Positions 30,460-64,000 of a stretch of DNA of 64,000 bases are shown piece after piece. Source of the stretch: Candidatus Parcubacteria bacterium. GTDB lineage: Bacteria; Patescibacteriota; Minisyncoccia; UBA6257; HR35. The position numbers and the translations under genes were made by a program. The stretch is from the NCBI GenBank assembly GCA_025999335.1, contig AP024681.1, forward strand, positions 227,656 to 291,655, written 5' to 3'. Position 1 is the stretch's first letter. The number at the start of each line of letters is the position of its first letter. The notes under the pieces were generated by a model that had not been told where the DNA came from, did no database searches, and saw only the letters and a program-made list of their open reading frames with translations.

Positions 30460-30522
30460 AACTCAATAAAATAAAAAGTTTTTATTATTTAAAAATTAAA
30501 TAGACTTTTCATTTTTCACTTT

Positions 30523-31200
30523 ATGCACGGTTTCACTTTAATTGAAGTTACGATTGTTATTTTAATTATTACCTTGCTTATATCTATTGCTCTTAAATAT
30601 AGTTTTATTAATAACGAAGTTTTAGAATTAAAAAACGCAACTTATAGCCTTAGCTCCTATTTAGGACAATTAAAAGATATATCTTTTAGCCGAAAAAATG
30701 TTGATGGTTATGCAACAGATCAAAGTGCTTGTGCTTATGGATTAAAAATTTCTTCATCTTCTTATATAGCTAAAGCTTTTGTAACTAGCACTAGAGCTGA
30801 TTGCGATAAAATAGCCTCAAATACTCCTGCAGAATTTCAAGATGGCAATATTTATATTACTAAAAATTTTGATTTAGTAACAACTTCTGATTATTACAAT
30901 ATTATTAATGAACAATTTAATAATATTAAAATCTCCATAGCAACATCGGCAAACGAAAATTGCGAACCTTTTCCAGGTGATCTTCTTGAAATCAATGATA
31001 GTATACTTATAAGTTTTTATAATCCTTTTGGTGATTTTATTGTTATCAACGACTCCAATGAAAAAATATTCAATTCAAGAGAAATCGGTGTAAATCAAAG
31101 CGTTTATGTATGTTTAAAATTAAAATCATCAATTAACAACGAAGAACGTTTAATTATTCTTAATAAATTAGGGCAAATAAAAACAGTTCTTTTTAAATAA
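30523..31200 (+). CDS. Type IV pilin-like protein (minor pilin)
   Basis: MHG-FTLIEVTIVILIITLLIS. Confidence 0.55.
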   Translation: MHGFTLIEVTIVILIITLLISIALKYSFINNEVLELKNATYSLSSYLGQLKDISFSRKNVDGYATDQSACAYGLKISSSSYIAKAFVTSTRADCDKIASNTPAEFQDGNIYITKNFDLVTTSDYYNIINEQFNNIKISIATSANENCEPFPGDLLEINDSILISFYNPFGDFIVINDSNEKIFNSREIGVNQSVYVCLKLKSSINNEERLIILNKLGQIKTVLFK

Positions 31201-31262
31201 AAAAATATATTTTAAAATATTTTTAAAATAAAATTTATAAACGATGCTTAGCAAATTAAATT

Positions 31263-31754
31263 ATGAAATTAATAAATAACAAAGAAAAAGCTTTTACTTT
31301 AGCGGAAATAATTATTGCTTTATTAATTATTGGCATTTCTGTGGCAGCTTTAACAAGATTAGCTATTAATTACATAGTTTCTTTATCTTTAGCCAAAGAA
31401 CAACTTTTAGCTATTTATGTTACCCAAGAAGGTTTAGAACTTGCCACAGCTTTAAGAAATAGCGCTCCAACTGGTTCAAACAACAGATTTCAAGTGCCTA
31501 TTAACACAACTTCTAACGCAATATCAACTTATTGTTTAGATTTTAATTCAAGCTCTAAAGAAATTACTACTACAACTGACTGTGCTGTTTCTTGGAATCG
31601 AAAATTCACGCGCGAAATTATTTATCAAACCTTAGCAAGAGCAAACCCTGGAGGCGATGATTATATAATAAGCATTATGTCTAGTTCAACATATAATCAA
31701 GAACCTCGATTTAGTTTAAATCAAAAAATTGTTCATACAGGTTATATAAGATGA
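31263..31754 (+). CDS. Type IV pilin-like protein (minor pilin)
   Basis: NNKEKA-FTLAEIIIALLIIGI (Ala at -1). Confidence 0.5.
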   Translation: MKLINNKEKAFTLAEIIIALLIIGISVAALTRLAINYIVSLSLAKEQLLAIYVTQEGLELATALRNSAPTGSNNRFQVPINTTSNAISTYCLDFNSSSKEITTTTDCAVSWNRKFTREIIYQTLARANPGGDDYIISIMSSSTYNQEPRFSLNQKIVHTGYIR

Positions 31755-32296
31755 CTAAAAAGAATAAAGCTTTTACTTTAATAGAAACAGTGGTAGTAAT
31801 TATGTTGTTTATTTTTGCGATTGTAATTATAGCGCAATTGTATATTAGTTTAACCAAGGCTGCTTTAGATTTACAACAACGACATATAGCTATAAATTCC
31901 ATTCACTCAGGTTTAGAAAAAATATATAGCGAATTGAAAAATGGATTCAGTTTTACAATAACAGATAATTCAATACTTTTTAAAGACAAATTATGTGAAA
32001 CCGCTATGATTAATTTTGATTCCAATAGGTTACTACTATATTACAATAGCTCATCATTGTTTAATAAAGATTTTGTTGAATTAGAGGATGTGAAAATTTA
32101 TGGTTATAATCCATCTACAACACCTAGCGCTAGTTACTATTATCAACATTCATCATCAACAAAATTAATAGTTATTGACTATTATTTTTATATAAAAAGT
32201 CCCATTACAACAAAAACACCTTTATTTATTAGGCAAAGCATTGCTCCTTTAAATAGTTCCAAGGCCCAAATAGTAAATCGTTGTAAATTTGAATAA
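31751..32296 (+). CDS. Type IV pilin-like protein (minor pilin)
   Basis: KKNKA-FTLIETVVVIMLFIF; ATGA overlap with the upstream gene. Confidence 0.5.
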   Translation: MTKKNKAFTLIETVVVIMLFIFAIVIIAQLYISLTKAALDLQQRHIAINSIHSGLEKIYSELKNGFSFTITDNSILFKDKLCETAMINFDSNRLLLYYNSSSLFNKDFVELEDVKIYGYNPSTTPSASYYYQHSSSTKLIVIDYYFYIKSPITTKTPLFIRQSIAPLNSSKAQIVNRCKFE

Positions 32297-32792
32297 ACAA
32301 TTAATAATTTTTAATTTTATGACAATAAATAATCAAAAACATAAAGCACAAGTTTTACTCATCACCATCTTTATTCTAACCATTGCTTTAGTCGGTATGT
32401 TTTTTATTTTAAATCCAATAAAAATAAAGTTATTATCAATTCAAAATTTCGCCAATACCTATAAAGCCTACAATAATGCAATTAGCGGCTTAAATCTATA
32501 CACTCTGTGTATAAGTAGTGACGAAACATCAATGGAAAACTCTAGTGCTTGCGTTAATTTTATGTCTATCATAGAAACTTCAACAATAAATAATACTAGT
32601 TATTGTTACGAAAGCTACCTAAATAGCGGAACTTGCACAACCGCAACTATTCGCAGTACAGGAACTGATACTGATTTAAAATTTGAAATAAATGTTTACA
32701 AAATGCAAATCGTTTCTACTCGTACTATTTATAGACTTAGCTCAGGTGAATATAAGAATAACATAAAAAATATTCTTGAATACATAGAATAA
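32289..32792 (+). CDS. Membrane-anchored pilus-associated protein (PilX-like?), unknown
   Basis: N-terminal TM without a prepilin cleavage motif; last gene of the pilin run; Cys-containing. Confidence 0.3.
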   Translation: MNKQLIIFNFMTINNQKHKAQVLLITIFILTIALVGMFFILNPIKIKLLSIQNFANTYKAYNNAISGLNLYTLCISSDETSMENSSACVNFMSIIETSTINNTSYCYESYLNSGTCTTATIRSTGTDTDLKFEINVYKMQIVSTRTIYRLSSGEYKNNIKNILEYIE

Positions 32793-51052: not shown

Positions 51053-51562
51053 TTAATTATGACTTAAAACTTTAACCCGCGCTGGACGTATAATTTTATT
51101 ATTATAAACATATCCTTTGCTAAATACTTCAACAATTAAGCCGTCATCACTTTTATCACATTGAGGTTTTGAACATTTCTCTGTTAAAATAGCTTCGTGT
51201 AAGTTCGGATCAAATTTCTTCATTTCAGTAATCTCAAAAACACCAAATTTATTTAAAATATCTTTTAATTGTGAATAAATAAGATAAAAGCCTTTGCTAA
51301 CCGCATCATCTTTAACTTCATTAAAAGCTAATTCGAAATTATCTAAAATATTTAACAAATAATAAACTAATTCAAAATTGGCTATTTCTTTAATCTGTTT
51401 TAATTTCTCTTCATACTCACTTTGCAACCTTAAAACATCATTTTTTGCTCTTTTTAAATTGTCTAAATATTGTTCTTTTTCTTTTTCTAATTGCGAAATT
51501 TTAGCCATCAATTCATCAATAGTTTCTGTTTGTTTTGGTAATTCTTCTTTTTCAGAATTCAT
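51053..51562 (-). CDS. grpE: Nucleotide exchange factor GrpE
   Basis: 169 aa, coiled-coil N-terminus and GrpE-like C-terminus; immediately upstream of dnaK. Confidence 0.7.
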   Translation of the reverse strand: MNSEKEELPKQTETIDELMAKISQLEKEKEQYLDNLKRAKNDVLRLQSEYEEKLKQIKEIANFELVYYLLNILDNFELAFNEVKDDAVSKGFYLIYSQLKDILNKFGVFEITEMKKFDPNLHEAILTEKCSKPQCDKSDDGLIVEVFSKGYVYNNKIIRPARVKVLSHN

Positions 51563-51649
51563 AGAAAAATAAAGAAAATTTTAAATTAAGAAATCAATTT
51601 ATGACTAAGCGACTAAAAAAATAAATTGGAATTAAAAGTAGTTAAAAAT

Positions 51650-52054
51650 TTATTCAATTTTTATTTCTTTGCCTGTTTCAATTGTTTTTTCAATTTTAGG
51701 AAGCACAACTTTTAAAATTCCGTTAGTCAAAGAAGCTTTTGCTTGTTTGTGGTCAACTTCTTTAGGAATTGGAATAACTTTTAAAAATGAACCTTTTTTA
51801 ATTTCTCTTCTCCAGTAATTTTTGTTTTTTTCTTCTTTTTCTTCAGAACTTTTTCCTTCAATCTTTAAATAACCCTCTTGAAATGAAACTTTAATATCTT
51901 TTTTATCAAAACCAGGAATTTGTAATTCAACAACAACATCTTTATCAGTCTCGTAAATATTGCTTGCTAAATAATTAACATCTTTAAAAGGAATCAAATC
52001 TCCTTCAAAAAATTTATCTAAAAAATTACGAAATTCGTCTCTTCTAATAATCAT
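51650..52054 (-). CDS. Small heat-shock protein (Hsp20/alpha-crystallin)
   Basis: 134 aa; alpha-crystallin domain pattern (VVELQIPGFDKKDIKVSFQEGYLKIEGK...ASLTNGILKVVLPK). Confidence 0.75.
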   Translation of the reverse strand: MIIRRDEFRNFLDKFFEGDLIPFKDVNYLASNIYETDKDVVVELQIPGFDKKDIKVSFQEGYLKIEGKSSEEKEEKNKNYWRREIKKGSFLKVIPIPKEVDHKQAKASLTNGILKVVLPKIEKTIETGKEIKIE

Positions 52055-52519
52055 AGTAAAAATAAGAAAATTTAAATAGCGACCTTTAGAGTCTAAAATA
52101 GAGTATTTATATTTTATATTATACTCAAGACAAAAATAAAAGTCAATATGCTAAAAAACCAATTAAATTAATATCATTTAAATGTTTAGAAAGTAATAGA
52201 TACTAATTAACGATTTTTAAATAAATAATAATATAAAGTTGGATCAGAAAAAATCCATATATACAAAATACCAATTAATAAAAAAACCAAAAATAAGATA
52301 AGTTTTTCCCACATAATAAGCATTAAATTATTGTTAATTAAGCTTATGTCTTTATTTTATCTTATTTTTTCAAAAAATAAAAATGTGCTACCTTAATAAA
52401 GTTTTAAAAAGTTATACACAAATTTATATTGATTTAAAAATTAAAATATGTTATAATAAATTATGGTTTATATTTAGGTCGTTTAGATTTTTTAATTATA
52501 ATTAAAAAATTAAACAATA

Positions 52520-52798
52520 ATGGAAAATAGAAATTTAACTATAGTATTAGTTATTGTAATTTTAATAGCTTTAGGCGCAGTAACTTGGTGGTTTGTAAAT
52601 AAACAACAAACATCTGAAGTGCCTGCTCCTGTAGAAACAACAACAACACCGACAGAGACTCCTCCGGCAACTCCTCCGCAACCATCAGAAACTCCTGGCG
52701 CTCAACCAACGCCAGAAACAACGCCAACGTCAACCACAACTCCAACAACAGGATCAACACCTACACCAACAACAACTACACCTACCCCTATACCATAA
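52520..52798 (+). CDS. Small membrane-anchored Pro/Thr-rich (mucin-like) protein
   Basis: N-terminal TM LTIVLVIVILIALGAVTWWFV, then about 60 aa of TPxTP repeats; locally GC-rich codons; followed by a strong terminator. Confidence 0.45.
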   Translation: MENRNLTIVLVIVILIALGAVTWWFVNKQQTSEVPAPVETTTTPTETPPATPPQPSETPGAQPTPETTPTSTTTPTTGSTPTPTTTTPTPIP

Positions 52799-52826
52799 AC
52801 AAATTAATTTAGCAATAAATAATAAA

Positions 52827-52858
52827 AACAACCTCCATTTGGAGGTTGTTTTTATTTT
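52827..52858 (+). terminator. Rho-independent terminator
   Basis: AACAACCTCC-ATTT-GGAGGTTGTT perfect 10-bp stem followed by TTTATTTT. Confidence 0.65.
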
Positions 52859-52888
52859 AAGTTAAAATATAATATATATTCTTCAATA

Positions 52889-54199
52889 ATGATAGATCCT
52901 ATAACTTTTGTTTTAAGGTTTATTTTTGATTTTTGGTGGCTATTGCTACCTCTATTTTTATGGCAAATCTATTGGGAACAATACAAAAGCATAAAGCAAA
53001 CCGATTATTCTAAAAATATTGAATGGGATTTTATTGAAATTAAATTTCCTGCTAATATTCTTAAAACACCTAAAGCTATGGAAGAAGCCCTTAATGCCCT
53101 TCACAGTATTCATCCTGATGAAAATAAAGAAATGACTTGGTACAATTTAAATATTAAAGGTTTTACACCTCTAAGTTATGCTTTTTTAATAATTTTTAAT
53201 CAAAAAAAATTACGTTTTTTTATTCGTTTTCCTAAACAATTAAACAATTTTTTAAAAACAAGATTATATACCTTTTACCCGGATTTACAATTAGAAAACG
53301 TCCCTGATCCTTTAGCTATTTTGCCACCTCAAATCCCTAACAGTTTTTTTGATGTCGCCAGTTATGATGTAAGATTAAAAAAAGAAGATGCTTATCCTAT
53401 AAAAACATATCAATATATTGATGTTCCTTCGGCAGAACAACCTATAGATATTTTTGCTAGTTTTAGCGAAGCAAGCAATGAAATTGAAAACAACGAATGG
53501 TTGATCATTCAATTATTAGCTGTACCTACAACTGCTAATAATAACAAAATAGGCAAAAAATGGATAAAAAGAGCTGAAGAAACAAAAAATAAATTAATTG
53601 GCAAAGAAGAAACAAAAGAAAACCCTCTGACAGAAGAAATAGTTGAATTTATTAAAAACTTGCTCTCCAGTCCTTGGGTAGAAATAACTTGGAAAAATAA
53701 AGAAGAACAAAAAAAGAAAGAATTCTCTTTACAACAATTAACTCCCGGCGAAAAAAATGTTTTAGAAAAAATAGAAAATAAAATGGCAAAACTTGGTTAT
53801 TGGTGTAATATCCGCGTAGCCTATATCGCTCCTCAAGATATAATTGAACAAAGAAAAAAAATTATCGAAACTCTTATTAAAAGTCTATTCAAAAATTTTG
53901 ACAGCGAGGACAGCAACGGCTTTGTTGTCAATGAATTAACTTATCGAAGAATTATCCCGCCAAACTTAAGCTTATTGTCATTCATTGCTAAATCTTTGGA
54001 GTATAACGACATAATTAAATACAGAAAAATAACTCTACCGTCGTATATGAAAAAACAATTCGCTGAGCTAAAACTTGATGAAGGCTTTATTTTAAACACA
54101 GAAGAGCTCGCCTCAATTTTCCACCCACCATTAACTTCAGTCGAAGCCATAGGTTTTAAAAAAATTCAAACAAAACATATTCCTCCGCCAACATTTTAA
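52889..54199 (+). CDS. Membrane protein partner of the T4CP-like ATPase, unknown
   Basis: 436 aa; N-terminal hydrophobic region (ITFVLRFIFDFWWLLLPLFLWQIYW), then a soluble domain; its stop is 15 bp before the ATPase gene. Confidence 0.35.
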   Translation: MIDPITFVLRFIFDFWWLLLPLFLWQIYWEQYKSIKQTDYSKNIEWDFIEIKFPANILKTPKAMEEALNALHSIHPDENKEMTWYNLNIKGFTPLSYAFLIIFNQKKLRFFIRFPKQLNNFLKTRLYTFYPDLQLENVPDPLAILPPQIPNSFFDVASYDVRLKKEDAYPIKTYQYIDVPSAEQPIDIFASFSEASNEIENNEWLIIQLLAVPTTANNNKIGKKWIKRAEETKNKLIGKEETKENPLTEEIVEFIKNLLSSPWVEITWKNKEEQKKKEFSLQQLTPGEKNVLEKIENKMAKLGYWCNIRVAYIAPQDIIEQRKKIIETLIKSLFKNFDSEDSNGFVVNELTYRRIIPPNLSLLSFIAKSLEYNDIIKYRKITLPSYMKKQFAELKLDEGFILNTEELASIFHPPLTSVEAIGFKKIQTKHIPPPTF

Positions 54200-54214
54200 A
54201 ATATTATCATAATA

Positions 54215-55738
54215 ATGTCTGACATTTTAATACTAGGCAAATATATTTTCAGAAATCAATCTAAAGAATTCGGCATTAAAACTGCTGATCGCCGCAAACA
54301 TATGTATGTCATAGGCAAAACTGGACAAGGTAAGACAACTTTTTTAGAGAATATGATTATTAATGATATTCTTAATAATAAAGGTTTAGCTTACTTTGAT
54401 CCCCACGGAGATAGCGTGCAAAAAATTCTCGATTTTATACCTAAAAATAGAATTGATGATGTTATTTATTTCAATCCTATGGACATTAATCATCCAATGG
54501 GTTTCAATCCTTTAGAAAAAATTCAATGGGAGCAAAGGCATTTAATAGCTCTTAGCTTATTATCAGTTTTTAAAAAAATTTGGGTTGATGCTTGGTCAGC
54601 AAGAATGGAATATATTCTGCTTAATGCTTTGCTTGCTCTTATGGAAATACCTGGAGCAACAATGTTAGATATTAACCGAATGTTAGGTGATAAAAATTTT
54701 CGTAAAATGGTTGTTGCTAACTTAAAAGATAGCGTCGTTAAAAATTTTTGGTTAAAAGAATTTGAAAAATACCATCAACAATTTCAAGTTGAAGCCGTAG
54801 CGCCAATTCAAAATAAAGTCGGACAATTTATAACTAATCCTTTAATAAGAAATATTATTGGTCAAAAAGAATCAACGTTTAATTTAAGAGAAATACTTGA
54901 AGGTAGAAAAATATTTTTGGCTAACTTATCTTTGGGAGCCATAGGCGAAGCAACTTCGTCTTTATTAGGCGGTTTGCTTATTAGCAAACTCCAATTATCA
55001 GCAATGAGTAGAGTTGATTTGCCTGAAGATAAGAGAGAAGATTTTTATTTATATGTTGATGAATTTCAAAATTTTGCTACAGATTCATTTGTTAATATTT
55101 TATCAGAAGCTAGAAAATATGGATTAAATTTAATTATTAGCCATCAATATTTAGATCAAATAGATGAAAAAATCAGAAAATCTATTTTTGGCAACATAGG
55201 CACATTTATTATCTTTCGTTTAGGCACCGTTGACGCAGAAATATTCAGCAAAGAATTAAACAACATCGTTACTGTTGACAACCTTATTAATCTTCCAGCT
55301 TATCATATTTATGTTAAATTACTCATTGACAGTGAACCATCGCCGCCTTTTTTAGCAACAACCATACCCCCAGCGCAAAAACCAGATATTTCTTATAAAG
55401 AAGAGATTCTTGCTATCAACCATTTAAAATATGCTAAAAAAAGAGCAAGCATCGAAAAAATTATTAGCGAAACCTTTAAAGATAATATTAATATTGATAG
55501 ATCAAAAATTAAAACTCAACAATGCACTGTTTGTGGCAAAGAATTTGAATTATATTTAGACGAAGAGGACAATGTATGTTTAGAATGCAAAAACCAGATT
55601 CGCGGTGGCATTTCCTTGAAAAAAGCGATTGAAAAAGGTATAGTCATTATGCAGCCCAAAAAACAAACTCAAAAAGAAACAATTCCTGATCCCTTAGATG
55701 AAATACTTAAAAAGTTAAACGAAGAAAATAATAAATAA
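54215..55738 (+). CDS. TraG/VirD4/TraD-family (type IV coupling protein-like) ATPase with C-terminal zinc ribbon
   Basis: Walker A GKTGQGKTT followed by DPHGD; Walker B YLYVDEFQNF; ISHQYLDQIDEKIRKSIFGNIGTFIIFRLGTVDAEIFSKEL matches the T4CP HQS...Q...YG...N motif; C-terminal CTVCG...CLEC; no TM. Confidence 0.55.
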   Translation: MSDILILGKYIFRNQSKEFGIKTADRRKHMYVIGKTGQGKTTFLENMIINDILNNKGLAYFDPHGDSVQKILDFIPKNRIDDVIYFNPMDINHPMGFNPLEKIQWEQRHLIALSLLSVFKKIWVDAWSARMEYILLNALLALMEIPGATMLDINRMLGDKNFRKMVVANLKDSVVKNFWLKEFEKYHQQFQVEAVAPIQNKVGQFITNPLIRNIIGQKESTFNLREILEGRKIFLANLSLGAIGEATSSLLGGLLISKLQLSAMSRVDLPEDKREDFYLYVDEFQNFATDSFVNILSEARKYGLNLIISHQYLDQIDEKIRKSIFGNIGTFIIFRLGTVDAEIFSKELNNIVTVDNLINLPAYHIYVKLLIDSEPSPPFLATTIPPAQKPDISYKEEILAINHLKYAKKRASIEKIISETFKDNINIDRSKIKTQQCTVCGKEFELYLDEEDNVCLECKNQIRGGISLKKAIEKGIVIMQPKKQTQKETIPDPLDEILKKLNEENNK

Positions 55739-55744
55739 TAAAAA

Positions 55745-57421
55745 ATGAACCAGCAATCAAAAAATAATAATCTTGATATTTTGGATATAGCTCAAAAATA
55801 TCTTAAATTAACTAAAAAAGGTAAATATTTTACCAGCCTTTGCCCTTTTCACCAAGAAAAAAAGCCTTCTTTTTATATCTCTCCAGAGATGCAAATATTT
55901 AAGTGTTTTGGCTGTGGCGAAAGTGGTAATGCTATTAAATTATTAATGAAATTAGAAAATATTGATTATCGACAAGCAATAACTTTGCTAAAAAATGAAT
56001 TTAATATTGACTATCAAAAATATAAAACAAAACAAGTACTCTCGCCAGAAATGAAATTATTAATAGAAATGAATTATGCGGCGCTAAAATTTTTCAAACA
56101 ACAACTACGCCAAAACCAAGAAGCTATTGATTATTTAATAAGCCGCGGCATTAATCAAGAAACAATTGATGAATTTGAATTAGGTTTTGCTCCTGGCGGC
56201 AATCTTTTAAGAGATTATTTGCATTCTCTTGGCTATGAATTAAAAGATATTAAAAAAAATGGATTGGTTGATGAACAACATAATGATCGCTTTCAATCTC
56301 GTATAATTTTTCCTTTAAAAGATGAAAATTTCCGTTTAATAGGTTTTACTGGCAGATTATTTAAAAAAAATTTTGGACCAAAATATCTTAACACGCCTGA
56401 CACACCTTTATTTTCTAAATCATCATTCCTTTATGGATTAAGTTACGCTAAAGACTATATCCTGCAAACAAAAAAAGTTATAATGGTTGAAGGACAATTT
56501 GATTTTTTGTTAAGTTGGGTTAATAATTATAAAAACACAGTTGCGATTTCAGGGTCAGCTTTGACTGAAAATCATCTTAGAAAACTTTCTCGCTACTGTC
56601 AAACAATTGTTTTTGCTTTCGATAATGACGAAAGCGGTTTCAAAGCAACATTGCGAGCAAATATTTTAGCCCGCCAACTTGGTATGGAAACATATCAATT
56701 AAATTATGACGCTAAAGATTTAGGTGAATATTTTTTAGAAAAAAAACAACCTCTTACTGAAACTAAATTTACCGATTTTTTAATAGATTTTTTAGTTAAT
56801 AAATATAACCATCAATATGAAAAAATACTACCTATCTTATTACCACATATTAAAGTTCTTAAGCCTTTAGAAAGTCATCAATATTTAGATAAAATATCAA
56901 AAGAATTTGGCATTCCTAAAAATATCTTGGAAAAAGAAATTAATGATATTATAATTAATAATTATCCATCGCCACTAGCATCCGAACCGTCTTCACAGCC
57001 TATTATAGATCAAGTACCAAACATTAATGTTGAATCAGCCTTAATTGATTCTTTAAGTTTAAAAATTATTAATCTAATATATGCCTTTGGCAAGACTGAT
57101 AACATCGATATCGCCAAAATCAAAAAAATAATACCTAAAAAATTTAAAAAATTATTTAATAATATAATTAGTAATAACCTTGATGATGAAAATAAACCTT
57201 ATTTTGAAATGGCTAAAGATTATTATCAACAACAAAAAATTAATTACCAACGGGAAATTACAAAAAGCGTTAATTATTTAGAAAAATTAATAATTAAAAA
57301 CAAAATTAAAATATTAAACAATAAATTAGAAAATATTAATAACAATAATCGCGATAAAATAATAAAGACAATTAAAAACTTGGTAGAACAATTAAAAATA
57401 ATCGAAAAAAACAATGCCTAG
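55745..57421 (+). CDS. dnaG: DNA primase
   Basis: CHC2 zinc finger ([14 protein letters not shown]...KCFGCGESG) and TOPRIM (MVEGQFD...DNDESG). Confidence 0.85.
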
Positions 57422-58529
57422 AAAAAAGAAACGCCCAACAGCTAAACCTAAAAAAAAGATTGAACAACAAAAAAATGATGTTATTGAAGAAAAAATAAAA
57501 ACTTTGCTTAATAAAGGTAAGGAAAAAGGATTCGTTACCGAAGACGAAATTCTTTATTTTTTTCCTGATATAGAAAAAAATATTGATATTCTAGAAAAAA
57601 TTTACGAAAGATTAGAAACATCGGGTTTAGAATTAAAAAGTAGTAGCGAGTTATGGCAGAATATTAATGAAAACGAATTAAATACAGCCTCAGGTGAATA
57701 TTTAACCGATGCCACGCAAAAATATTTAATTGAAATAGGCAAATACCCTCTTTTAAGCAATGAAGAAGAAAAAGAGTTGGCTAAAAAAGCTGCCAAAGGA
57801 GATTTAGAAGCCAGAGAACGTTTGATTAAATCTAATTTAAGATTGGTTGTCAGTTTTGCTAAAAAATATATAGGCAGAAGTAAAGGCTTGACTCTCTTAG
57901 ATTTAATCCAAGAAGGCAACATAGGATTAGCAAGAGCTGTTGATAAATTTGATTGGCGACGTGGCTTTAAATTTTCTACTTTTGCAACCTGGTGGATAAG
58001 ACAAGCAATTTCTAGGGCTTTGTCGGATCAAGCCCGAACTATTAGATTGCCGGTACATATTGTAGAAACTTTGTATAAACTTAATAAAGCAAAAAAAAGA
58101 TTAGCATCTATTTTGGATCGCGAACCAACTCCAGAAGAATTGGCTGCAGAAATGGGAATGCCTACAAATAAAATCCAAAAATTATTAAAATATGTTCCTG
58201 ATACTATATCTTTAGAAGCTCCTGTTGGCGAAGGCGAGTCAATGCTAAAAGAACTAATACCTGATACAGCAACATTTAGCCCTGAAAAATTAGCTTCATC
58301 AATTGCTCTACGAGAACAATTAAAAAAAGCCATCCAAAGCCTAAGCCCCAAAGAAAGACGTGTTATTAGCTTAAGATACGGCTTAGAAGATGGCGTCATT
58401 CACACTTTAGAGGAAATTGGCAAATTGTATGGCATTACCCGTGAAAGAGTAAGACAGATAGAGATTAAAGCTTTAGAAAAATTAAAACATAATGAATTAA
58501 TTAAAAAAATTAAAGAGCAAGGAGTTTAA
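57414..58529 (+). CDS. rpoD: RNA polymerase sigma-70 factor (primary-type)
   Basis: Regions 2-4 present ([49 protein letters not shown]). Confidence 0.85.
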
Positions 58530-58536
58530 TTGCATA

Positions 58537-59640
58537 ATGTTCTATCATAAATATAGGCCACAATTTTTTAAAGAAGTTATTGGCCAAGATTTGGTTATAA
58601 AAATTTTGCAAAATTTTTTAAGATCAGGAATTATACCGCATGCTTATCTTTTTAGTGGCGACAAAGGAACAGGCAAGACAACTTTAGCTAGAATTTTTGC
58701 TAAAGCAGTTAATTGTCAAAATATTAACACCGAAAAACAAAATATCGAACCATGCGACCAATGCTTTACTTGTAAATTATTTAAACAAAATAAATTTTTA
58801 GACATTATTGAACTAGACGCTGCTTCTAATCGTAAAATAGATGATATTCGTCATATCCAAGAACACATTGGCTTTCATCCTCTGCAAGGCAAGTATAAAG
58901 TGTTTATCATTGATGAAGCTCATTCTTTAACTGAAGAAGCTTCCAATGCCCTTTTAAAAACTTTAGAAGAACCACCGAAACATGCTTTATTTATTTTAGC
59001 CACAACTGAAGCTAACAAAATATTACCCACGGTTTTATCTCGTGTGCAAAGACTTGATTTCAAGAAAATACCAGCTAAAAAAATTTTTGAAAAATTAAAA
59101 AAAATATGCGCGGCAGAAAAAATTAAATACGAAGAAAGCGCTTTATTAATGATTGCTGAAGAAGCTGAAGGATCATTGCGAGATGCAGAAACTTTATTAG
59201 AAAGAATTTCTTTAAGTTTAGCGCCCCAAGAAATTCTTAGTGAAGATATTGTTAATGATTTTCTGGGTTATTTAAACACAAATAAAATATTAGAATTTAT
59301 AGAATTAGTTACTAATAAAAAAATAAAAGAAAGCATCAATTTTTTAGAAGAAATTTATAGTAAAGGTTTTGATATGGTTTTGTTTCTTAAATCCGTACTT
59401 ATAATGTTGAAAAAAATAACTTTATCTAAAATAGATGAAAGTTACCTTAAACATCTAACCTTTGAAAAATCACAAGAAACAATAGAGCGTATTAAAAAAA
59501 TAAATCAACAATTAACTATTGAAGATTTAAAAAATTTACAACAAGTTTTACTAAAAGCTAATCAACAATTACGTTATGAATTACCTTCGCCAACTCTACC
59601 AATAGAACTTGCCTTAATAGAATATTTTCGGTTAAAATAA
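58537..59640 (+). CDS. dnaX: DNA polymerase III gamma/tau subunit (short form)
   Basis: Walker A GDKGTGKTT, zinc module CQN...CDQCFTC, DEAH box (IIDEAHSL), SRVQ; 367 aa. Confidence 0.8.
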   Translation: MFYHKYRPQFFKEVIGQDLVIKILQNFLRSGIIPHAYLFSGDKGTGKTTLARIFAKAVNCQNINTEKQNIEPCDQCFTCKLFKQNKFLDIIELDAASNRKIDDIRHIQEHIGFHPLQGKYKVFIIDEAHSLTEEASNALLKTLEEPPKHALFILATTEANKILPTVLSRVQRLDFKKIPAKKIFEKLKKICAAEKIKYEESALLMIAEEAEGSLRDAETLLERISLSLAPQEILSEDIVNDFLGYLNTNKILEFIELVTNKKIKESINFLEEIYSKGFDMVLFLKSVLIMLKKITLSKIDESYLKHLTFEKSQETIERIKKINQQLTIEDLKNLQQVLLKANQQLRYELPSPTLPIELALIEYFRLK

Positions 59641-59654
59641 ATAAAATCTTAAAT

Positions 59655-59725
59655 TGCGGGGTCGTCTAATGGTAGGACAGCGGCCTTTGGAGCCGTTAAT
59701 CTTGGTTCGAATCCAAGCCCCGCAG
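59655..59725 (+). tRNA. tRNA-Gln (anticodon TTG)
   Basis: TGCGGGGTCGTCTAATGGTAGGACAGCGGCCTTTGGAGCCGTTAATCTTGGTTCGAATCCAAGCCCCGCAG; U1:A72 pair typical of bacterial tRNA-Gln; anticodon loop CTTTGGA. Confidence 0.65.
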
Positions 59726-59831
59726 CTAGCAAGAAAAAATTAAAGTCATCCGTCAATTTTTGTTGACTGACAACTAAATTGACCATAATTTGTAACAAAA
59801 AAATCATTTGGTTCTTTTGTTTTAATATATA

Positions 59832-60065
59832 ATGTTAAAAAGGATTGAAAAAGGTGAAGCTAATGAAATTTTAAATTGGTATCCGAATCACCTAACTAGA
59901 AATTCAATAAATGTCGGTAAAATAATTTATATGATAGATAAAGGTTTAGTTAAATCTCTCAAGTTTCCCACTTTTAGTTTAAATCAATGCTACAAGGATT
60001 ATTTATGCTTCAAATTGCTTTTAAGCAAAGCAAATATTGCTTCGATAATCTTTCATAATTTTTGA
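59832..60065 (+). CDS. Hypothetical small protein
   Basis: 77-aa ORF in the islet after tRNA-Gln; no motif recognised. Confidence 0.2.
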   Translation: MLKRIEKGEANEILNWYPNHLTRNSINVGKIIYMIDKGLVKSLKFPTFSLNQCYKDYLCFKLLLSKANIASIIFHNF

Positions 60066-60087
60066 AGAAAGAAAAATATTTTATAAA

Positions 60088-60789
60088 ATGTTTGAAGATT
60101 TAAAACCTAATCCAGGCAAAAATTTAAATATTGAGGTTGATAATCATATATATGCTCGGTTCCCTATTAAAACTCACATAATAACCAAAGAAGATGATAT
60201 TGTTGATGTTTGCAAAAAATACGCCAAGCCGTATTTGCAAAACGGTGATCTGCTTTTTGTAAGCGAACGGATTGTTACTATTAGTCAAGGTCGGGCTTTT
60301 CCGATAAAAGACATTAAGCCATCATTTCTCGCGAAATTTTTGGTAAAGTTTGTTCATAAATCACCTTATGGCATTGGCTTGGGCAGTCCCTGGACAATGG
60401 AACTAGCAATTAGAGAAGCAGGTGCATTGAGAATAATTATCGGCGCACTGGCTGCCGCAATTACTAAACCTTTTGGCATTAGGGGCATTTTTTATAAAGT
60501 TGTTGGCAAAAATATAAATGCAATTGATGGTCCGTGTGATTACACGCTTCCACCCTACAATCAATACGCTAAACTTGGACCGGCAGAACCGGAAAAAGTG
60601 GCAAAAAAATTAAAGATGGAATTGAATAATGATGTTGTTATTATTGATGCTAATGATTTAGGCGTTGCTGTTTTGGGAAAATCTAGCAAATCTATTTCGG
60701 ACTCTTTCTGTAAAAATGTATTTAGGGATAATCCCCTGGGACAATCATCTGAGCAAACTCCGCTTTGCATTGTTAGAAAAATAAATTGA
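60088..60789 (+). CDS. CofE-like (F420-0:gamma-glutamyl ligase family) protein, putative
   Basis: GDLLFVSERIVTISQGRAF... resembles the CofE-family core; noticeably higher GC and different codon use (ctg/ccg/ggc) than its neighbours. Confidence 0.35.
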   Translation: MFEDLKPNPGKNLNIEVDNHIYARFPIKTHIITKEDDIVDVCKKYAKPYLQNGDLLFVSERIVTISQGRAFPIKDIKPSFLAKFLVKFVHKSPYGIGLGSPWTMELAIREAGALRIIIGALAAAITKPFGIRGIFYKVVGKNINAIDGPCDYTLPPYNQYAKLGPAEPEKVAKKLKMELNNDVVIIDANDLGVAVLGKSSKSISDSFCKNVFRDNPLGQSSEQTPLCIVRKIN

Positions 60790-61061
60790 ATTGCCGCCAA
60801 AGAAAAAGTTAAAATTGTCATCGGTGCAACTTTATCGCATTTTTAGATTTTCACTAGAAACTTTCCTAAGCACCGCTGATGGTTAAATATGTTTGAACTA
60901 TTTTTAGTATAGACAACGAAATCTCCTCAATTCGTATTTCTAAATTTCTAATTTCTAAAATTATTTGCTTTAAACTAAAGGCTAAATCTGTTAAAATAAT
61001 ATTGGAGATTTAAATTATCGCTTTATAATCAATAATTTACATTAAATAATAAAATTTTATT

Positions 61062-61400
61062 ATGACTGCCGCTCGTTTTTTTGCTCTCCTTATTGGAGGC
61101 ATAATAATGCTACCTCTCGCTGTAGCCGTAGATTTTCTTTTAGAGCCTGCGCTTGGAACATTAAGTTTTGGCATAATAAGTTATTTATTAGATGCTATAA
61201 TGGGAGGTTTGTATTTCTTTTGGAGTATTTTTATTGATTACTATAATTCTAATAAACCGGGCTTAAAAAAATCAGTTATTCAATCGGCGAAAAAATTAAT
61301 TGTAGTTGCTACTGGTGAAGCAATTCCTTTTCTGGGAGATATTATGCCATTTTGGACTTTACGAGTTGCTTTAGAAATGTACAATCTTATTAAAGTATAA
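61062..61400 (+). CDS. Small membrane protein, unknown
   Basis: 112 aa, three hydrophobic helices. Confidence 0.3.
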   Translation: MTAARFFALLIGGIIMLPLAVAVDFLLEPALGTLSFGIISYLLDAIMGGLYFFWSIFIDYYNSNKPGLKKSVIQSAKKLIVVATGEAIPFLGDIMPFWTLRVALEMYNLIKV

Positions 61401-61447
61401 TCCGAATAACTTTTAAGAAAATTAAAAATTTGTTAAAATATATAATT

Positions 61448-61567
61448 ATGAAAAGTAATTTAAAACAAAAAAGAAAAGTTGGTTTTTTAAAACGCAGTGC
61501 TCGCAAAAGTGGTAGAAAAATCTTACAAAGACGTAGACGAAAGGGTAGAAAAAAACTGAGTGTTTAA
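61448..61567 (+). CDS. rpmH: 50S ribosomal protein L34
   Basis: Translated by hand: MKSNLKQKRKVGFLKRSARKSGRKILQRRRRKGRKKLSV (39 aa, L34 consensus). Below the ORF-track size cutoff; immediately upstream of rnpA. Confidence 0.8.
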   Translation: MKSNLKQKRKVGFLKRSARKSGRKILQRRRRKGRKKLSV

Positions 61568-61898
61568 AATATCTTTAATGCTTAAAAAGCAATTCCGACT
61601 TGATGGTAAAACTATTAAAAATTTATTTGCCGGCAAATTAAAAAAAATAAGCAACGGTAATTTTACTATTTTGTATACGCCCAATAATTTAAAACATTGC
61701 CGTTTTACTGTTATTTGCAAAAAAGAAAACTTTAAAAAAGCAACCCTTCGTAATAAAATTAAAAGACAAATCTATTCTTTACTTTTCCGTTTGATAAAAA
61801 ATAACTTTTTTAAACAAAACTATGATTGTATAATAATTATTAATCAAACAATTAACGATTATCAATCATTAATTAACCTATTAGAAAAAATATTTTAA
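61560..61898 (+). CDS. rnpA: Ribonuclease P protein component
   Basis: Basic protein directly after rpmH (conserved rpmH-rnpA-yidC order); LKKQFRL...RNKIKRQIY pattern. The true start may be the Met at about 61578. Confidence 0.65.
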   Translation: MFKISLMLKKQFRLDGKTIKNLFAGKLKKISNGNFTILYTPNNLKHCRFTVICKKENFKKATLRNKIKRQIYSLLFRLIKNNFFKQNYDCIIIINQTINDYQSLINLLEKIF

Positions 61899-61907
61899 AA
61901 ACTTACA

Positions 61908-62555
61908 ATGATTAGCGAAATTTTTGGTTTGTTTAAAGACGGAGTTATTGGTATTATTTTAATATTTTATAAATATTTTAATGATTTAACTCTTGCTATT
62001 ATTGTTTTCACTCTTGTTTTAAAAATTTTAACTTTGCCTTTTAGCTTTTTATCATTCGTTGAAGAAAAAAAAATAAAAAAACTGCAACCAAAAATTAAAG
62101 AGATCTTTAAAAAATATAAAGGTGATATTATTAAACAAAACGAGGAATTAAATAAAATTTACCGCCAAGAAAATTATAAACCTCTCCTTTCCATTTTCTA
62201 TCAACTAATTCCTATGTTCATCATTATTGTTGTACTTACAGCTTTTAATAACATTATTAAAATGCCTAACATTAATAAAATAAGTTTTAATTTTTTAAAT
62301 TTATCCCAAAAAAATGTTTTTCTTTTTATTATTTTATTAATTACTCAACTTTTAACAATTAGAGAAATGAACAAAGACCAAAGAAAAATATTTTTAGGCA
62401 TATTTATTTTAATAGCTTTTGTTTTATATAATTTCCCGGCTATTATTCAAATATATCTTATAACCTATTTTAGTTTATCGCTAATTGAGAAATATTTATT
62501 CAACTTTTATTATATAAAAAAGCCTGTCACTCCTATTCCAAAAAATAATCCCTAA
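61908..62555 (+). CDS. yidC: Membrane protein insertase YidC (short form)
   Basis: LPFSFLSF...KKLQPKIKEIFKKYKGD...NKIYRQENYKPLLSIFYQLIPMFI matches the YidC/Oxa1 core (L.PL...KMQ.LQPKI...Y.....NP..GCLP.L.Q.P.F); follows rnpA. Confidence 0.65.
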   Translation: MISEIFGLFKDGVIGIILIFYKYFNDLTLAIIVFTLVLKILTLPFSFLSFVEEKKIKKLQPKIKEIFKKYKGDIIKQNEELNKIYRQENYKPLLSIFYQLIPMFIIIVVLTAFNNIIKMPNINKISFNFLNLSQKNVFLFIILLITQLLTIREMNKDQRKIFLGIFILIAFVLYNFPAIIQIYLITYFSLSLIEKYLFNFYYIKKPVTPIPKNNP

Positions 62556-63701
62556 AGGCGTACGCATTGGTTTAACAACATCGAAATTGCCATTTAAACT
62601 AATTTCTTTAGTCTCTGAAGTTTGAGGATCGAAAATTACTAATTTTGTATCATTGCTTGGTTGTAATAAATGCCATGTTTCCGGATCAAAATCGCTTTTA
62701 TCATTAACACCACAAATTAATACATCCTTAAACGAACATTTGTCGCTAACAATAGCCCAAGGAAAAGATGTTAAGACTTCTTGATTTTTAACCTTCATAA
62801 CAACTGTTTGATTATTAGATGTTAAATTATTAAAATAGCTAATCAATAAAAAATTATTATCCGAGCTAGGCAGTAAAGCATAAGTTTTATCTATATCGGA
62901 AAATAAACGAAGAACTGGAGATTTTGATAAATCAAGAAAAAAAATTGGATTGTTTTTCTCATAAATAAAAATTCCGTTTTTAAAAGCAACTAAATCAGCA
63001 TTTAAAATACCTAAATTTCTTATTTTATTCGATTTATGATTTACTAAATCGTAATCTGCTAAATAAGAATAAGATTCATCATTGCTTATATATAAAATTA
63101 ATTTATTACTCAAAAACACTAAATTTTTAGTAAAAGGAGGCAAAGATTTTATAACATCAGCGTCAATGTCAACTAAAGTAAATATATCTCTCTGTTTAAA
63201 AATTAACTGATTTTTATTAGGAGAAATAAATATTTTTTCAAAATTATAAGTGTTTAGATTATTACTTGGATTATAGATTTCTTTTATTTGAATATTTTCT
63301 AAATCAGAAATATCGAAATATTTTACAATAAAATCACTAAAATCATAAGCATATATTTTAGGATAATCAATATCAATCAAAAATAGCTGCTGCTTAAATA
63401 AAGTTTGGTAATTTTGATTAGGTGAAGACGTGACTATATCCGACTCTACTAACGGTGGTAGATCATAAATTGGCGGAATTGAAGATGTCGCCCTAATATC
63501 ATTTGACGATGAAGTGCCATTGGTTATAGGTCCTGTACCTGGTGGTATCACTCGTATAGAACCACCGCCAGGAGGTCTGTCAACATCTTGAATATTAACA
63601 TTATTATTTTGAACATTATTACGTGAAACAAAATAACCTATTAAAACAAGAATTAAAATTATCAAAACAACTATTATAATAATTAAATATTTTTTATCCA
63701 T
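62496..63701 (-). CDS. Membrane-anchored extracellular protein, unknown (Pro/Gly-rich linker + beta-rich domain)
   Basis: 401 aa; N-terminal TM (YLIIIIVVLIILILVLIGYFV), then a PPGGGSIRVIPPGTGP linker. Confidence 0.3.
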   Translation of the reverse strand: MDKKYLIIIIVVLIILILVLIGYFVSRNNVQNNNVNIQDVDRPPGGGSIRVIPPGTGPITNGTSSSNDIRATSSIPPIYDLPPLVESDIVTSSPNQNYQTLFKQQLFLIDIDYPKIYAYDFSDFIVKYFDISDLENIQIKEIYNPSNNLNTYNFEKIFISPNKNQLIFKQRDIFTLVDIDADVIKSLPPFTKNLVFLSNKLILYISNDESYSYLADYDLVNHKSNKIRNLGILNADLVAFKNGIFIYEKNNPIFFLDLSKSPVLRLFSDIDKTYALLPSSDNNFLLISYFNNLTSNNQTVVMKVKNQEVLTSFPWAIVSDKCSFKDVLICGVNDKSDFDPETWHLLQPSNDTKLVIFDPQTSETKEISLNGNFDVVKPMRTPLGIIFWNRSDRLFYIIKVE

Positions 63702-63744
63702 TAATATTATTTTAAAACAATTTTTTTAAATTAATTATAAAAAG

Positions 63745-64000
63745 TTATCGCGACATAGGCTTGGTTTTGGTAAATATATGCAAATGACTACCGGTCCAAT
63801 CTTTTGATCCTTTTATGCGTCTTTCATCTAAAACAAAAAAACCACTTTCTAAAGATGCCTCAATGGCTTTTTGCCATCTCTCGTCATCTGGCGGTAGTTT
63901 TTTGCCTGACTCATCCACTATAATCAAATCAATAGCTGTTCCAAAAACAGTATGAGATTTTGAACTATGATCGCCAGCTGAATAACCATCAGTAATTTTA
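63745..64000 (-). CDS. M15-family (VanY-like) D-Ala-D-Ala carboxypeptidase, C-terminal part (gene runs past the window end)
   Basis: The reading frame stays open upstream of the listed start (the listed Met is a TTG). Extended translation ...SKSHTVFGTAIDLIIVDE... contains the SxHxxGxAxD zinc-binding motif, and a later GSHLH. Confidence 0.45.
   Translation of the reverse strand, partial: KITDGYSAGDHSSKSHTVFGTAIDLIIVDESGKKLPPDDERWQKAIEASLESGFFVLDERRIKGSKDWTGSHLHIFTKTKPMSR

Follow-up and report, generated by a model that had tools for sequence, protein, structure and literature searches.

The locus at positions 52,520 to 55,738 of the window (the whole stretch of 64,000 nucleotides analyzed here) raises the question of why a coupling-protein-like ATPase should be encoded directly behind a membrane protein in the core genome of a member of the Patescibacteria, and what function the two might share. 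The original prediction described an orphan module in which a type IV coupling protein (T4CP) had been split into a soluble ATPase and a detached membrane half. We propose that the two proteins are halves of a single ATPase, membrane-anchored and of the VirB4/VirD4 branch within the FtsK-HerA superfamily, and that the pair has been inherited vertically as a core module of the Patescibacteria; we assign this reading a probability of about 0.65. The features that enter the argument are as follows.

52520..52798, plus strand: Pro/Thr-rich small membrane-anchored protein, 92 aa (open reading frame and composition)
52821..52856, no strand assigned: perfect 16-bp hairpin followed by a T-run, resembling an intrinsic terminator (consensus match only)
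52889..54199, plus strand: DUF8128 (PF26449) protein, 436 aa, with a predicted N-terminal TM or membrane-associated helix and an alpha/beta domain like the N-terminal domain of VirB4
54215..55738, plus strand: TM-less ATPase of the VirD4/VirB4 superfamily, 507 aa, with a zinc ribbon and tail at its C-terminus
54314..54337, plus strand: Walker A, GKTGQGKT, residues 34-41 (motif in the ATPase sequence)
55046..55063, plus strand: Walker B, YLYVDE, residues 278-283 (motif in the ATPase sequence)
55523..55588, plus strand: zinc ribbon, CxxC-x14-CxxC, residues 437-458 (motif in the ATPase sequence)
55745..59640, plus strand: dnaG-rpoD-dnaX, starting 6 bp 3′ of the ATPase gene
62496..63701, minus strand: 401-aa membrane-anchored protein, first gene of a T4SS-associated cluster, adjoining yidC (38% identity, locus L001)
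63745..64000, minus strand: 3′ end of a gene for a 294-aa pilin-like/hydrolase protein, cut by the window edge (contig L085, 9073-9957)

The ATPase gene (plus strand) begins 15 bp 3′ of the 436-aa gene as the open reading frames are read, and its product carries Walker A at residue 34, DPHGD, Walker B at residue 278, and the cysteine pairs CTVC (437) and CLEC (455). The three reading frames, the Walker motifs, the zinc ribbon, the TM-less character of the ATPase and the terminator-like site were all borne out at the coordinates first given. A further T4CP-type motif, previously transcribed as HQ..Q...YG..N..T.I.F..D, reads HQYLDQIDEKIRKSIFGNIGTFIIFRLGTVD; the transcribed pattern was only approximate, but its conserved positions hold, and Q311, Q315, G326, N327, G329, F334, G337 and D340 are invariant across the ATPase family. 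Mean column identity in this family is 54%. G34, G37, G39 and K40 of Walker A and Y280, D282 and E283 of Walker B are likewise invariant, the CxxC...CxxC arrangement is present in the family consensus, and relatives carry PF23477 (zf_Tbcl_2). No TM helix was detected in the 507 residues, in which 19-residue windows peak at a KD value of 1.58 against a threshold of 1.6, and the AF2 model opens straight at the core beta-strands.

Because three Pfam models of T4CPs score above their cut-offs on this protein (TrwB_AAD_bind, 44.6 bits against 20.5; TraG-D_C, 28.5 against 22; T4SS-DNA_transf, 27.2 against 20.1), its assignment to the T4CPs is more than chance. Among solved sequences the closest are TrwB and DotL. 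Curated NCBIfam T4CP equivalog cut-offs were not reached (NF045973, the best, 53.9 bits against 250; TIGR03743, 48 against 366). The protein has a nucleotide-binding domain of the FtsK-HerA type that carries Walker A and B and matches the family models. In the AF2 model, eight helices occupy residues 105-229, between Walker A (34) and Walker B (278), and 348 of 420 TrwB residues align with the model, which points to a VirD4-type all-alpha domain at this position. The predicted fold is thus the FtsK/HerA/T4CP one that had been expected, and not a different fold. The combination of a 4TM anchor with alpha/beta motor and gamma domains that marks FtsK/SpoIIIE was not found in the ATPase, and by sequence the protein does not belong to VirB4 (no Pfam PF03135 match; TIGR00929, 20.6 bits against 643). 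The protein also matches mad8 (E 5e-20) and, weakly, the HerA and DndH models.

The 436-aa partner has a single hydrophobic N-terminal helix (KD19 of 1.79 at residues 5-25; a helix at residues 4-43 in the AF2 model) and is more than a TM stub, having a globular domain of roughly 390 residues. A precomputed PF26449 match is recorded for most homologs and for a database protein (P0121) that is 100% identical to it, and a profile with the window protein as its first row (A1) finds 1112 representatives at E<=1e-30. Profile searches of the PDB gave no match (best E 1.5), and none was obtained in the Pfam and NCBIfam copies searched, that Pfam copy being one without PF26449. Searching the literature for 'DUF8128' yielded no papers. 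The best structural match of the DUF8128 model is TrwK/VirB4, with low Foldseek TM-scores of 0.30-0.37, and the matched part is most likely the N-terminal domain, which in the R388 system is membrane-proximal and wrapped by VirB3 (PMC9259494). With hhalign, the probability was below 1% against the VirB4 and TraC-like proteins of the same genome and below 1% against alignments of 81 VirB4 and 65 TraC-like sequences (0.1% for the 81 VirB4). Since profile-profile similarity is absent and the TM-scores are low, the suggested homology between DUF8128 and the VirB4 N-terminal domain rests on a fold comparison of the predicted model. A short match between 'LNTEELA' and 'L.TeElIELF' was judged not significant (P 0.076).

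The relationship between the two genes was surveyed in 80 species-representative Patescibacteria loci encoding DUF8128. The ATPase gene lies directly 3′ of the DUF8128 gene on the same strand in 66 of the 75 assessable loci, a gene for a protein with sigma-70 region 4 and a HARE-HTH domain precedes DUF8128 in 73 of 79, and the complete trio is found in 62 of 74. Exceptions occur on both sides: DUF8128 is without an adjoining ATPase in 9/75 loci, and two ATPase orthologs (P0074 and P0080) have no adjoining DUF8128. At least 120 protein clusters consist of colinear DUF8128-ATPase fusions of about 815 aa and, because these paralogs join the two in one chain, the genes appear from their sequences to constitute one functional unit. 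The proposal that the 436-aa protein represents the membrane half, detached from the ATPase, is therefore supported, by the 66/75 adjacency as well as by the fusions.

The pair is a vertically inherited, near-universal core module of the Patescibacteria and not the leftover of a mobile element. Its base composition matches the surrounding genome, its synteny is kept in relatives at only 50-65% identity, and its neighbors across loci are housekeeping genes (secDF, efp, mnmA, pgk, recJ, dnaX); at one locus of 65% GC, labelled 'Binatia' (L065), the neighbors gave no informative domains. T4CP homologues have been counted in 2,918 of 3,035 genomes, and their scattering away from virB4 in Patescibacteria had been reported before (PMC12102498). 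The term 'orphan' accordingly does not fit a module that is phylum-wide and normally includes a third gene, the one with sigma-70 region 4 and HARE-HTH, and that in the window has a VirB4 T4SS only 12 genes off. These observations bear on the reading of the pair as an ordinary split T4CP in the narrow sense, with a TM stub and a VirD4 nucleotide-binding domain, that an integrated conjugative element or a decayed T4SS island left behind. The best Pfam and NCBIfam matches of the ATPase are indeed conjugative T4CPs, plasmids do encode TM-less T4CPs with small membrane partners (PMC7434980), and a VirB4 cluster lies 12 genes away. Every NCBIfam T4CP equivalog score is nevertheless far under its cut-off (53.9 against 250, for example), the partner is a 436-aa protein resembling the VirB4 N-terminal domain and not a small TM protein, and the family is highly conserved throughout the phylum, with positional orthologs in relatives. 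We detected no relaxase-like ORF between 47.8 and 64 kb and no integrase or repeat boundary, and all ORFs of at least 60 aa from 47.8 to 63.7 kb are either housekeeping genes or uncharacterized genes whose orthologs in relatives occupy the equivalent position. We rejected a conjugative-element remnant on synteny, conservation and the lack of a relaxase or integrase, and the split-T4CP reading as a whole is very improbable.

Genomic context likewise led us to reject an anti-phage defense motor of the DptH/DndH, HerA or MADS Mad8 type, a reading which we consider scarcely credible. DUF8128 matches no defense model; a nuclease, methylase, Sir2 or other effector gene adjoins the pair in no locus examined; and near-universal distribution, a fixed place in the core genome and strong conservation run directly counter to the way defense islands behave.

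Within the window the locus is an ordinary member of the module, unusual only in that the HTH gene is missing and that the pair is joined to a dnaG-rpoD-dnaX operon near a T4SS. The flanks are as earlier described, with hsp20-grpE-dnaK (minus strand) on the left and dnaG-rpoD-dnaX on the right. The latter genes are probably in one transcription unit with the ATPase gene in this lineage; dnaG occurs at 7 of 84 loci, so that this synteny is confined to close relatives of the window. A tblastn search for the sigma-r4/HARE-HTH gene matched only region 4 of rpoD in the window, and locus L005 likewise has no HTH gene. The 92-aa product consists of a hydrophobic N-terminal segment (KD19 maximum 2.84) followed by 62 residues, 43 of them Thr or Pro, and the hairpin at 52821-52856 separates its gene from the DUF8128 gene. 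Homologous small ORFs with a TM segment and a P/T-rich region occupy the equivalent position only in L001, L002/3, L005 and L008, and the gene is not among the neighbor families that recur across the 80 loci. It is a lineage-specific neighbor outside the phylum-wide module and is probably transcribed separately. The 465-bp AT-rich divergent intergenic region at 52055-52519 was considered as a replication origin and rejected: it has 21 DnaA-box matches against 16.2 expected, a number reached in 13/100 shuffles, so the boxes are not enriched; GC skew around it tracks the coding strand, and we make no claim for it.

A membrane-anchored ATPase of the FtsK-HerA superfamily in a core operon with replication genes might be imagined to replace FtsK in chromosome segregation at division. 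We rejected this role, which has hardly any probability left to it, because Southlakia epibionticum carries an essential canonical FtsK.

The original prediction had also stated that no VirB4 or VirB6/8/9/10 is nearby. The window in fact ends inside a Patescibacteria-type T4SS cluster. Contig L085, which is 100% identical to window positions 59672-64000, continues past base 64000 with a 224-aa gene, then VirB4 (602 aa), genes resembling TraC/TrsD and PrgI/VirB3, and one for a polytopic membrane protein of 989 aa; VirB4 follows about 1.3 kb past the window end and, traced through this contig, is 12 genes (about 9.6 kb) downstream of the ATPase. The gene for the 401-aa protein near the window end is the ortholog of one that flanks the VirB4 cluster in relatives; its product is 38% identical to that of the 366-aa gene in this position in L001, and in L085 its gene adjoins the pilin-like gene and VirB4. 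The pilin-like gene encodes 294 residues with two TM helices, a pilin-like N-terminus and a hydrolase-like C-terminal part, and its positional equivalents in L001 and L002 carry PF18895 (T4SS_pilin). This proximity is lineage-specific. No VirB4 was found within 10 kb of DUF8128 in the 80 DUF8128 loci, and the pair was found within 10 kb of VirB4 in 0 of 80 VirB4 loci; in the published survey, only 148 of 5,713 T4CP homologues are near virB4 (PMC12102498). Nothing was found in support of the suggested link to type IV pili, PilB/PilT or ComEC.

Evidence from a tractable species is available for S. epibionticum ML1 (Saccharimonadia), in which SEML1_0294 and SEML1_0293 show the gene order of most loci. 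SEML1_0294 is a 349-aa protein with Sigma70_r4 and HARE-HTH domains encoded directly upstream of the T4CP-like SEML1_0293, in contrast to the window, which has no HTH gene. SEML1_0293 is a single fused protein of 921 aa, where the window has split genes; TrwB_AAD_bind starts at residue 402, and the approximately 400 N-terminal residues are unannotated. Judging from architecture and position, SEML1_0293 would be an ortholog that contains DUF8128. In published Tn-seq data, SEML1_0294 is essential while SEML1_0293 is not, comEC is also non-essential, and neither ComFA nor ComEA is annotated in this species.

Two functional interpretations compete. The chromosomal T4SS cluster of the Patescibacteria itself has no recognizable coupling protein, and our tentative preference, held at somewhat less than even odds, is that the pair is the substrate-feeding 'coupling' ATPase of this system, dispensable for its essential function, which is possibly pilus-related. 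Against a role in the T4SS stand the 0/80 proximity to VirB4 from either side and the non-essentiality of SEML1_0293 in the Tn-seq data, where the T4SS is essential. A DNA-handling role independent of the T4SS is nearly as likely. In its explicit form, which we regard as possible but rather unlikely, the DNA-binding protein with sigma-70 r4 and HARE-HTH guides the membrane-anchored ATPase, which moves DNA across or along the membrane, alone or together with another channel, for example as a cytoplasmic puller for transformation through ComEC or in chromosomal DNA export or processing. A conserved operon partner with two HTH DNA-binding domains (73/79 loci) argues for it, as do the missing virB4 link in 160 loci seen from both sides, the presence of T4CP homologues in 2,918 genomes and VirB4 in 2,417, of 3,035 (PMC12102498), the non-essentiality of the S. 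epibionticum counterpart, shared with comEC where ComFA and ComEA are unannotated, and the recurrence of replication genes alongside (dnaG-rpoD-dnaX in the window, dnaX by the fused paralog). Neighborhood clustering, however, showed no linkage to comEC, dprA or pilus genes; the gap in genome counts could reflect the incompleteness of MAGs together with about two T4CP copies per genome; and the HTH gene is absent from the window and L005. In S. epibionticum, moreover, the HTH protein is essential and the ATPase is not, and the former may therefore be merely a transcription factor that shares the operon.

In the mechanism that we favor for the two-part ATPase, the N-terminal helix of DUF8128 would insert in the cytoplasmic membrane, and its VirB4-N-terminal-domain-like part would bind and organize the soluble ATPase, as within VirB4. 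The ATPase would oligomerize under the membrane, probably as a hexamer, and ATP hydrolysis would drive or hand over a macromolecular substrate, most likely DNA or nucleoprotein. The zinc-ribbon tail may serve as a recognition site for a partner or substrate. The HTH gene, directly upstream in most lineages, would have been lost or moved in the genome of the window.

Patescibacteria account for a large part of bacterial diversity; they are ultrasmall and host-dependent and live attached to host cells. No other T4SS had been shown to be essential to the organism carrying it before their chromosomal one. The approximately two T4CP homologues per genome of earlier surveys are explained by a conserved two-part machine, split and fused, in place of stray VirD4 genes, and the gene for a sigma-r4/HARE-HTH DNA-binding protein normally accompanies one of these forms. 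DUF8128 gains a concrete candidate role as membrane anchor and organizer of an ATPase, and T4SS evolution a possible VirB4-VirD4 intermediate. A more speculative extension, which we consider doubtful, is that DUF8128-linked ATPases form a third lineage, not recognized before, beside VirB4 and VirD4 that may have kept the ancestral build of membrane-proximal N-terminal domain and motor, with the HTH-linked copy acting as a T4SS-independent motor for DNA import or export. If so, these ATPases would provide a 'missing link' in the descent of coupling proteins from a VirB4-like ancestor with two domains. The HTH-linked copy would also be a candidate for the cytoplasmic motor that natural transformation lacks in Patescibacteria, where ComEC is present and no ComFA is annotated. 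Genes for mutation can be named in one tractable species, S. epibionticum: SEML1_0293/0294 and SEML1_0141/0142.

The pair can be compared with several known systems. VirD4-type T4CPs (TrwB of R388, DotL/IcmO, Cag-beta) have an N-terminal TM domain that the ATPase chain of the window does not; this ATPase instead bears a C-terminal zinc ribbon, has neither a relaxase gene nor an MPF cluster around its own gene, and has as its partner a large VirB4-NTD-like protein; DUF8128 supplies the TM helix. Relative to VirB4 (TrwK of R388; the C-terminal domain of Thermoanaerobacter pseudethanolicus VirB4, 4ag5), there is no similarity at the sequence level, the parts are split over two genes in a genome that has a separate bona fide VirB4, and DUF8128 has its own TM helix where VirB4 relies on VirB3. 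In pIP501, the TM-less T4CP TraJ is encoded beside a membrane protein, TraI, that is thought to recruit it (PMC7434980). There too a TM-less coupling-type ATPase adjoins a membrane protein, which makes the two systems analogous; the pIP501 partner is described as small, and its conjugative plasmid also encodes a relaxase, whereas that of the window has 436 aa with a conserved globular domain and is chromosomal and phylum-wide. EccE-EccC of type VII secretion is also among the closest known systems. The fused Patescibacteria paralogs of about 815 aa share the same two domains in the same order, with 41% identity to the window proteins in the ATPase part and 22% in the DUF8128 part. They differ in being one polypeptide without the zinc-ribbon tail and in their flanks, with a small gene (about 125 aa) in front in place of the HTH gene and gtrA-dnaX behind. 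Like the split pair they reside in the core genome, and single genomes can contain both forms (L015, L088).

The window is AT-rich (about 28% GC) and densely filled with housekeeping genes, including fusA, ligA, dnaE, RNase J, groEL, RNase Y and dnaK-grpE-hsp20. The three open reading frames named in the original prediction lie at exactly the positions claimed, and the strong terminator it placed after the first was found as a hairpin with a T-run:

52520–52798, + strand: Pro/Thr-rich protein of 92 aa, with a strongly hydrophobic N-terminus and a 62-residue tail holding 25 Thr and 18 Pro
52821–52856: perfect 16-bp hairpin and T-run, 3′ of the 92-aa gene
52889–54199, + strand: DUF8128 protein of 436 aa, with one hydrophobic N-terminal helix
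54215–55738, + strand: ATPase of 507 aa, beginning 15 bp past the 436-aa ORF

Only 6 bp separate the ATPase stop codon from the start of dnaG, which overlaps rpoD and is followed by dnaX; because of this spacing, the pair is probably co-transcribed with dnaG-rpoD-dnaX in the source organism. The Pro/Thr-rich gene occurs at the same position only within one sub-lineage (loci L001, L002, L005 and L008). For both pair proteins, the top organism-named database relatives are Patescibacteria/Parcubacteria MAGs.

Several features elsewhere were recorded in passing. Where loci L001–L003 carry an hrcA-like gene, the window has just 88 bp (51562–51650) between grpE and hsp20, and its dnaK operon thus appears to lack the heat-shock repressor gene. 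Two large ORFs in the core region, 4665–6815 (−; 716 aa) and 19662–20996 (−; 444 aa), gave no Pfam hit at E≤1e-5. Four ORFs, at 29926–32792 (+) and 14756–15679 (−), begin with a prepilin-type motif (G/A-F-T-L-I/V-E, then a hydrophobic helix); the type IV pilins mentioned earlier are indeed present as a cluster, with three motif-bearing ORFs running consecutively at 29.9–32.3 kb. In a related Patescibacteria contig (L173, 10424–11476), a ribonucleotide reductase gene is annotated with two intein/LAGLIDADG insertions.

The 507-aa sequence agrees with its description as an ATPase with Walker motifs and a CxxC...CxxC element, and no TM segment: GKTGQGKT lies at residue 34, followed by DPHGD, YLYVDE at 278 and CTVC/CLEC at 437/455. 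The zinc-ribbon cysteines are present in the family consensus, and conservation is very high, with a mean column identity of 54% and dozens of invariant residues. Three Pfam models exceed their gathering cut-offs (TrwB_AAD_bind, 44.6 bits; TraG-D_C, 28.5; T4SS-DNA_transf, 27.2), FtsK_SpoIIIE and DUF87 score under theirs, and none of the curated NCBIfam families of type IV coupling proteins (T4CPs) is reached, the CD1115 family scoring highest at 53.9 bits, where 250 are required. The only solved structures related by sequence are TrwB and DotL. These results together place the ATPase in the VirB4/VirD4 branch of the FtsK-HerA superfamily, and it is predicted to share with typical T4CPs a helical insertion between the Walker motifs. 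PADLOC matched it to the Mad8 ATPase of MADS (E 5e-20) and weakly to HerA and DndH; these matches come from the common fold, not from genomic context, and a role in defence is most unlikely.

Homologs of the 436-aa protein carry PF26449 (DUF8128), a family for which our literature search found no paper. Searched with a profile, 1.84 billion representatives yielded 3600 sequences at E≤1e-3, of which 1112 reached E≤1e-30. In the AF2 model (pLDDT 85.3, pTM 0.82), alpha/beta modules follow a long helix at the N-terminus (residues 4–43). A structural comparison of this model gave TrwK, the VirB4 of plasmid R388, as best match and listed no other P-loop protein, so the matching part is probably the non-ATPase N-terminal domain of VirB4, which the DUF8128 model appears to resemble. 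Foldseek, run independently, ranked TrwK chains first (E 7.5e-5, probability 1.0), at TM-scores of just 0.30–0.37. Sequence comparison with VirB4 and with the TraC/TrsD-like proteins encoded by Patescibacteria type IV secretion systems (T4SSs) revealed no relationship, and the proposed homology therefore derives solely from fold comparison.

Scanning one genome per GTDB species yielded at least 529 DUF8128 loci, and the counts that follow refer to the best 80. By record title, nearly all are Patescibacteria MAGs; a few are labelled Gammaproteobacteria, Binatia, Bdellovibrionales or Pacearchaeota, an assignment that reflects the title only. Of the 75 loci with enough sequence, 66 have the ATPase directly downstream and in the same orientation; 73/79 encode, directly upstream, a roughly 340-aa protein that combines an N-terminal Sigma70_r4 domain with HARE-HTH at the C-terminus. 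The trio is complete in 62 of 74 loci; secD-secF come before it in 49 loci, and efp, mnmA, pgk, recJ and RNase H are further recurrent neighbours. VirB4 was found within 10 kb of DUF8128 in none of the 80. Viewed from the ATPase, DUF8128 lies upstream in 4 of 6 long contigs, the exceptions being the Parcubacteria genomes KatS3mg094 and KatS3mg095. There the ATPase orthologs (L004, 7737–9879; L171, 2789–4907, − strand) have neither DUF8128 nor the HTH gene upstream; the space between ATPase and rpsJ operon is occupied instead by three unannotated minus-strand genes (220–245 aa).

At locus L015, a colinear DUF8128-ATPase fusion is encoded eight genes downstream of the split pair. Its junction coincides exactly with the end and start of the two window ORFs, to which it is 22% (DUF8128) and 41% (ATPase) identical; the zinc ribbon is not present. 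Searching with this fusion gave at least 120 clusters of proteins that combine PF26449 with PF10412 and are about 815 aa long. The paralog was located at:

L015, 19034–21212: fused DUF8128-ATPase paralog
L088–L090, 10001–12466: fused DUF8128-ATPase paralog

It sits among core genes, with no VirB4 nearby in the loci examined; a small gene (about 125 aa) invariably comes before it, and gtrA and then dnaX come after. Two DUF8128-linked ATPase families per genome would fit the published survey of 3,035 Patescibacteria genomes, 2,918 of which have VirD4-type homologues, 5,713 in all and only 148 of them near virB4 (PMC12102498).

The window differs from most loci in its upstream gene. The Sigma70_r4/HARE-HTH gene is absent from the window, where tblastn finds rpoD region 4 only, and from its closest GTDB relative, L005; the slightly more distant L001–L003 retain it in the same synteny. 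It has been lost or relocated in the window and L005. Representative copies are:

L001, 7809–8678: Sigma70_r4 + HARE-HTH gene
L002, 7607–8671: Sigma70_r4 + HARE-HTH gene
L030, 4869–5882: Sigma70_r4 + HARE-HTH gene

The pair had been described as an orphan, a claim overturned by a T4SS cluster with VirB4 that starts at the right edge of the window. Contig L085 matches window 59672–64000 with 100% identity and extends 9.7 kb beyond. The cluster adjoins rpmH-rnpA-yidC on the minus strand (window 62496–64000, continuing into L085 1–9957), in this order:

62496–63701, − strand: 401-aa membrane protein, the first cluster gene past yidC
63745–64000, − strand: 3′ end of a 294-aa gene whose product has two TM helices and joins a pilin-like N-terminus to a hydrolase-like C-terminus
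L085: 224-aa gene, VirB4 (602 aa), TraC/TrsD-like and PrgI/VirB3-like genes
L085, after PrgI/VirB3-like: 314-aa gene, 989-aa polytopic membrane protein and one more large gene

The cluster is the Patescibacteria-type T4SS reported in PMC12102498. From the ATPase stop to the VirB4 start is about 9.6 kb and 12 genes. Among 80 metagenomic VirB4 loci (40–68% identity), 37 have yidC as a neighbour, and none has dnaX, dnaG, DUF8128 or the ATPase within 10 kb. The closeness of pair and VirB4 in the window is thus lineage-specific, and the window copy is an ordinary member of a phylum-wide module. That the pair is a leftover of a mobile element is highly improbable.

Widespread T4CP homologues in Patescibacteria, mostly distant from virB4, were already known, as were DUF8128 as a Pfam family and the existence of TM-less T4CPs. 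In the literature searched we did not find the obligate DUF8128-ATPase pairing and fusion, the VirB4-N-terminal-domain-like fold, the conserved trio, or its match to SEML1_0294/0293 of Southlakia epibionticum ML1. Although the observation was partly published before, the module findings should be useful to, and testable by, T4SS and CPR specialists.

In S. epibionticum, where published Tn-seq provides essentiality, SEML1_0294 (349 aa; Sigma70_r4 27–72, HARE-HTH 225–283) is essential and directly upstream of the non-essential SEML1_0293 (921 aa; TrwB_AAD_bind 402–719, about 400 unannotated N-terminal residues). This is the module architecture of most loci, but in fused form, and architecture and position suggest orthology. 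SEML1_0142 (a second T4CP-like gene, 1019 aa) and the small upstream SEML1_0141, both essential, resemble the small gene and fused paralog, to which they may correspond. The organism has ComEC, with ComFA and ComEA not annotated, and a canonical, essential FtsK; that the pair substitutes for FtsK is very doubtful.

The essential T4SS cluster of S. epibionticum is reported without a recognisable coupling protein or relaxase. The chromosomal T4SS requires a means of substrate selection, and the module may tentatively be read, at somewhat under even odds, as its coupling ATPase. In classical systems the T4CP is not known to be required for pilus biogenesis, so an essential, pilin-rich T4SS could coexist with a non-essential T4CP without contradiction. 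Pair and T4SS are almost never linked in the genome, the operon partner is predicted to bind DNA, and replication genes lie nearby; on these grounds the competing reading is a DNA motor independent of any T4SS, which we place only slightly behind the coupling reading.

As to the proteins themselves, the best-supported reading is that the two genes encode one membrane-anchored VirB4/VirD4-type ATPase. DUF8128 would supply the TM helix and a VirB4-N-terminal-domain-like platform, and the 507-aa protein the motor and zinc-ribbon tail; complex, hexamer and membrane topology are suggested by analogy with TrwB/VirB4 and by the fusion family. In the R388 structure, the VirB4 N-terminal domain is wrapped by VirB3, which provides TM segments (PMC9259494), and plasmid pIP501 offers in TraJ/TraI a precedent for a TM-less T4CP with a separate membrane partner (PMC7434980).
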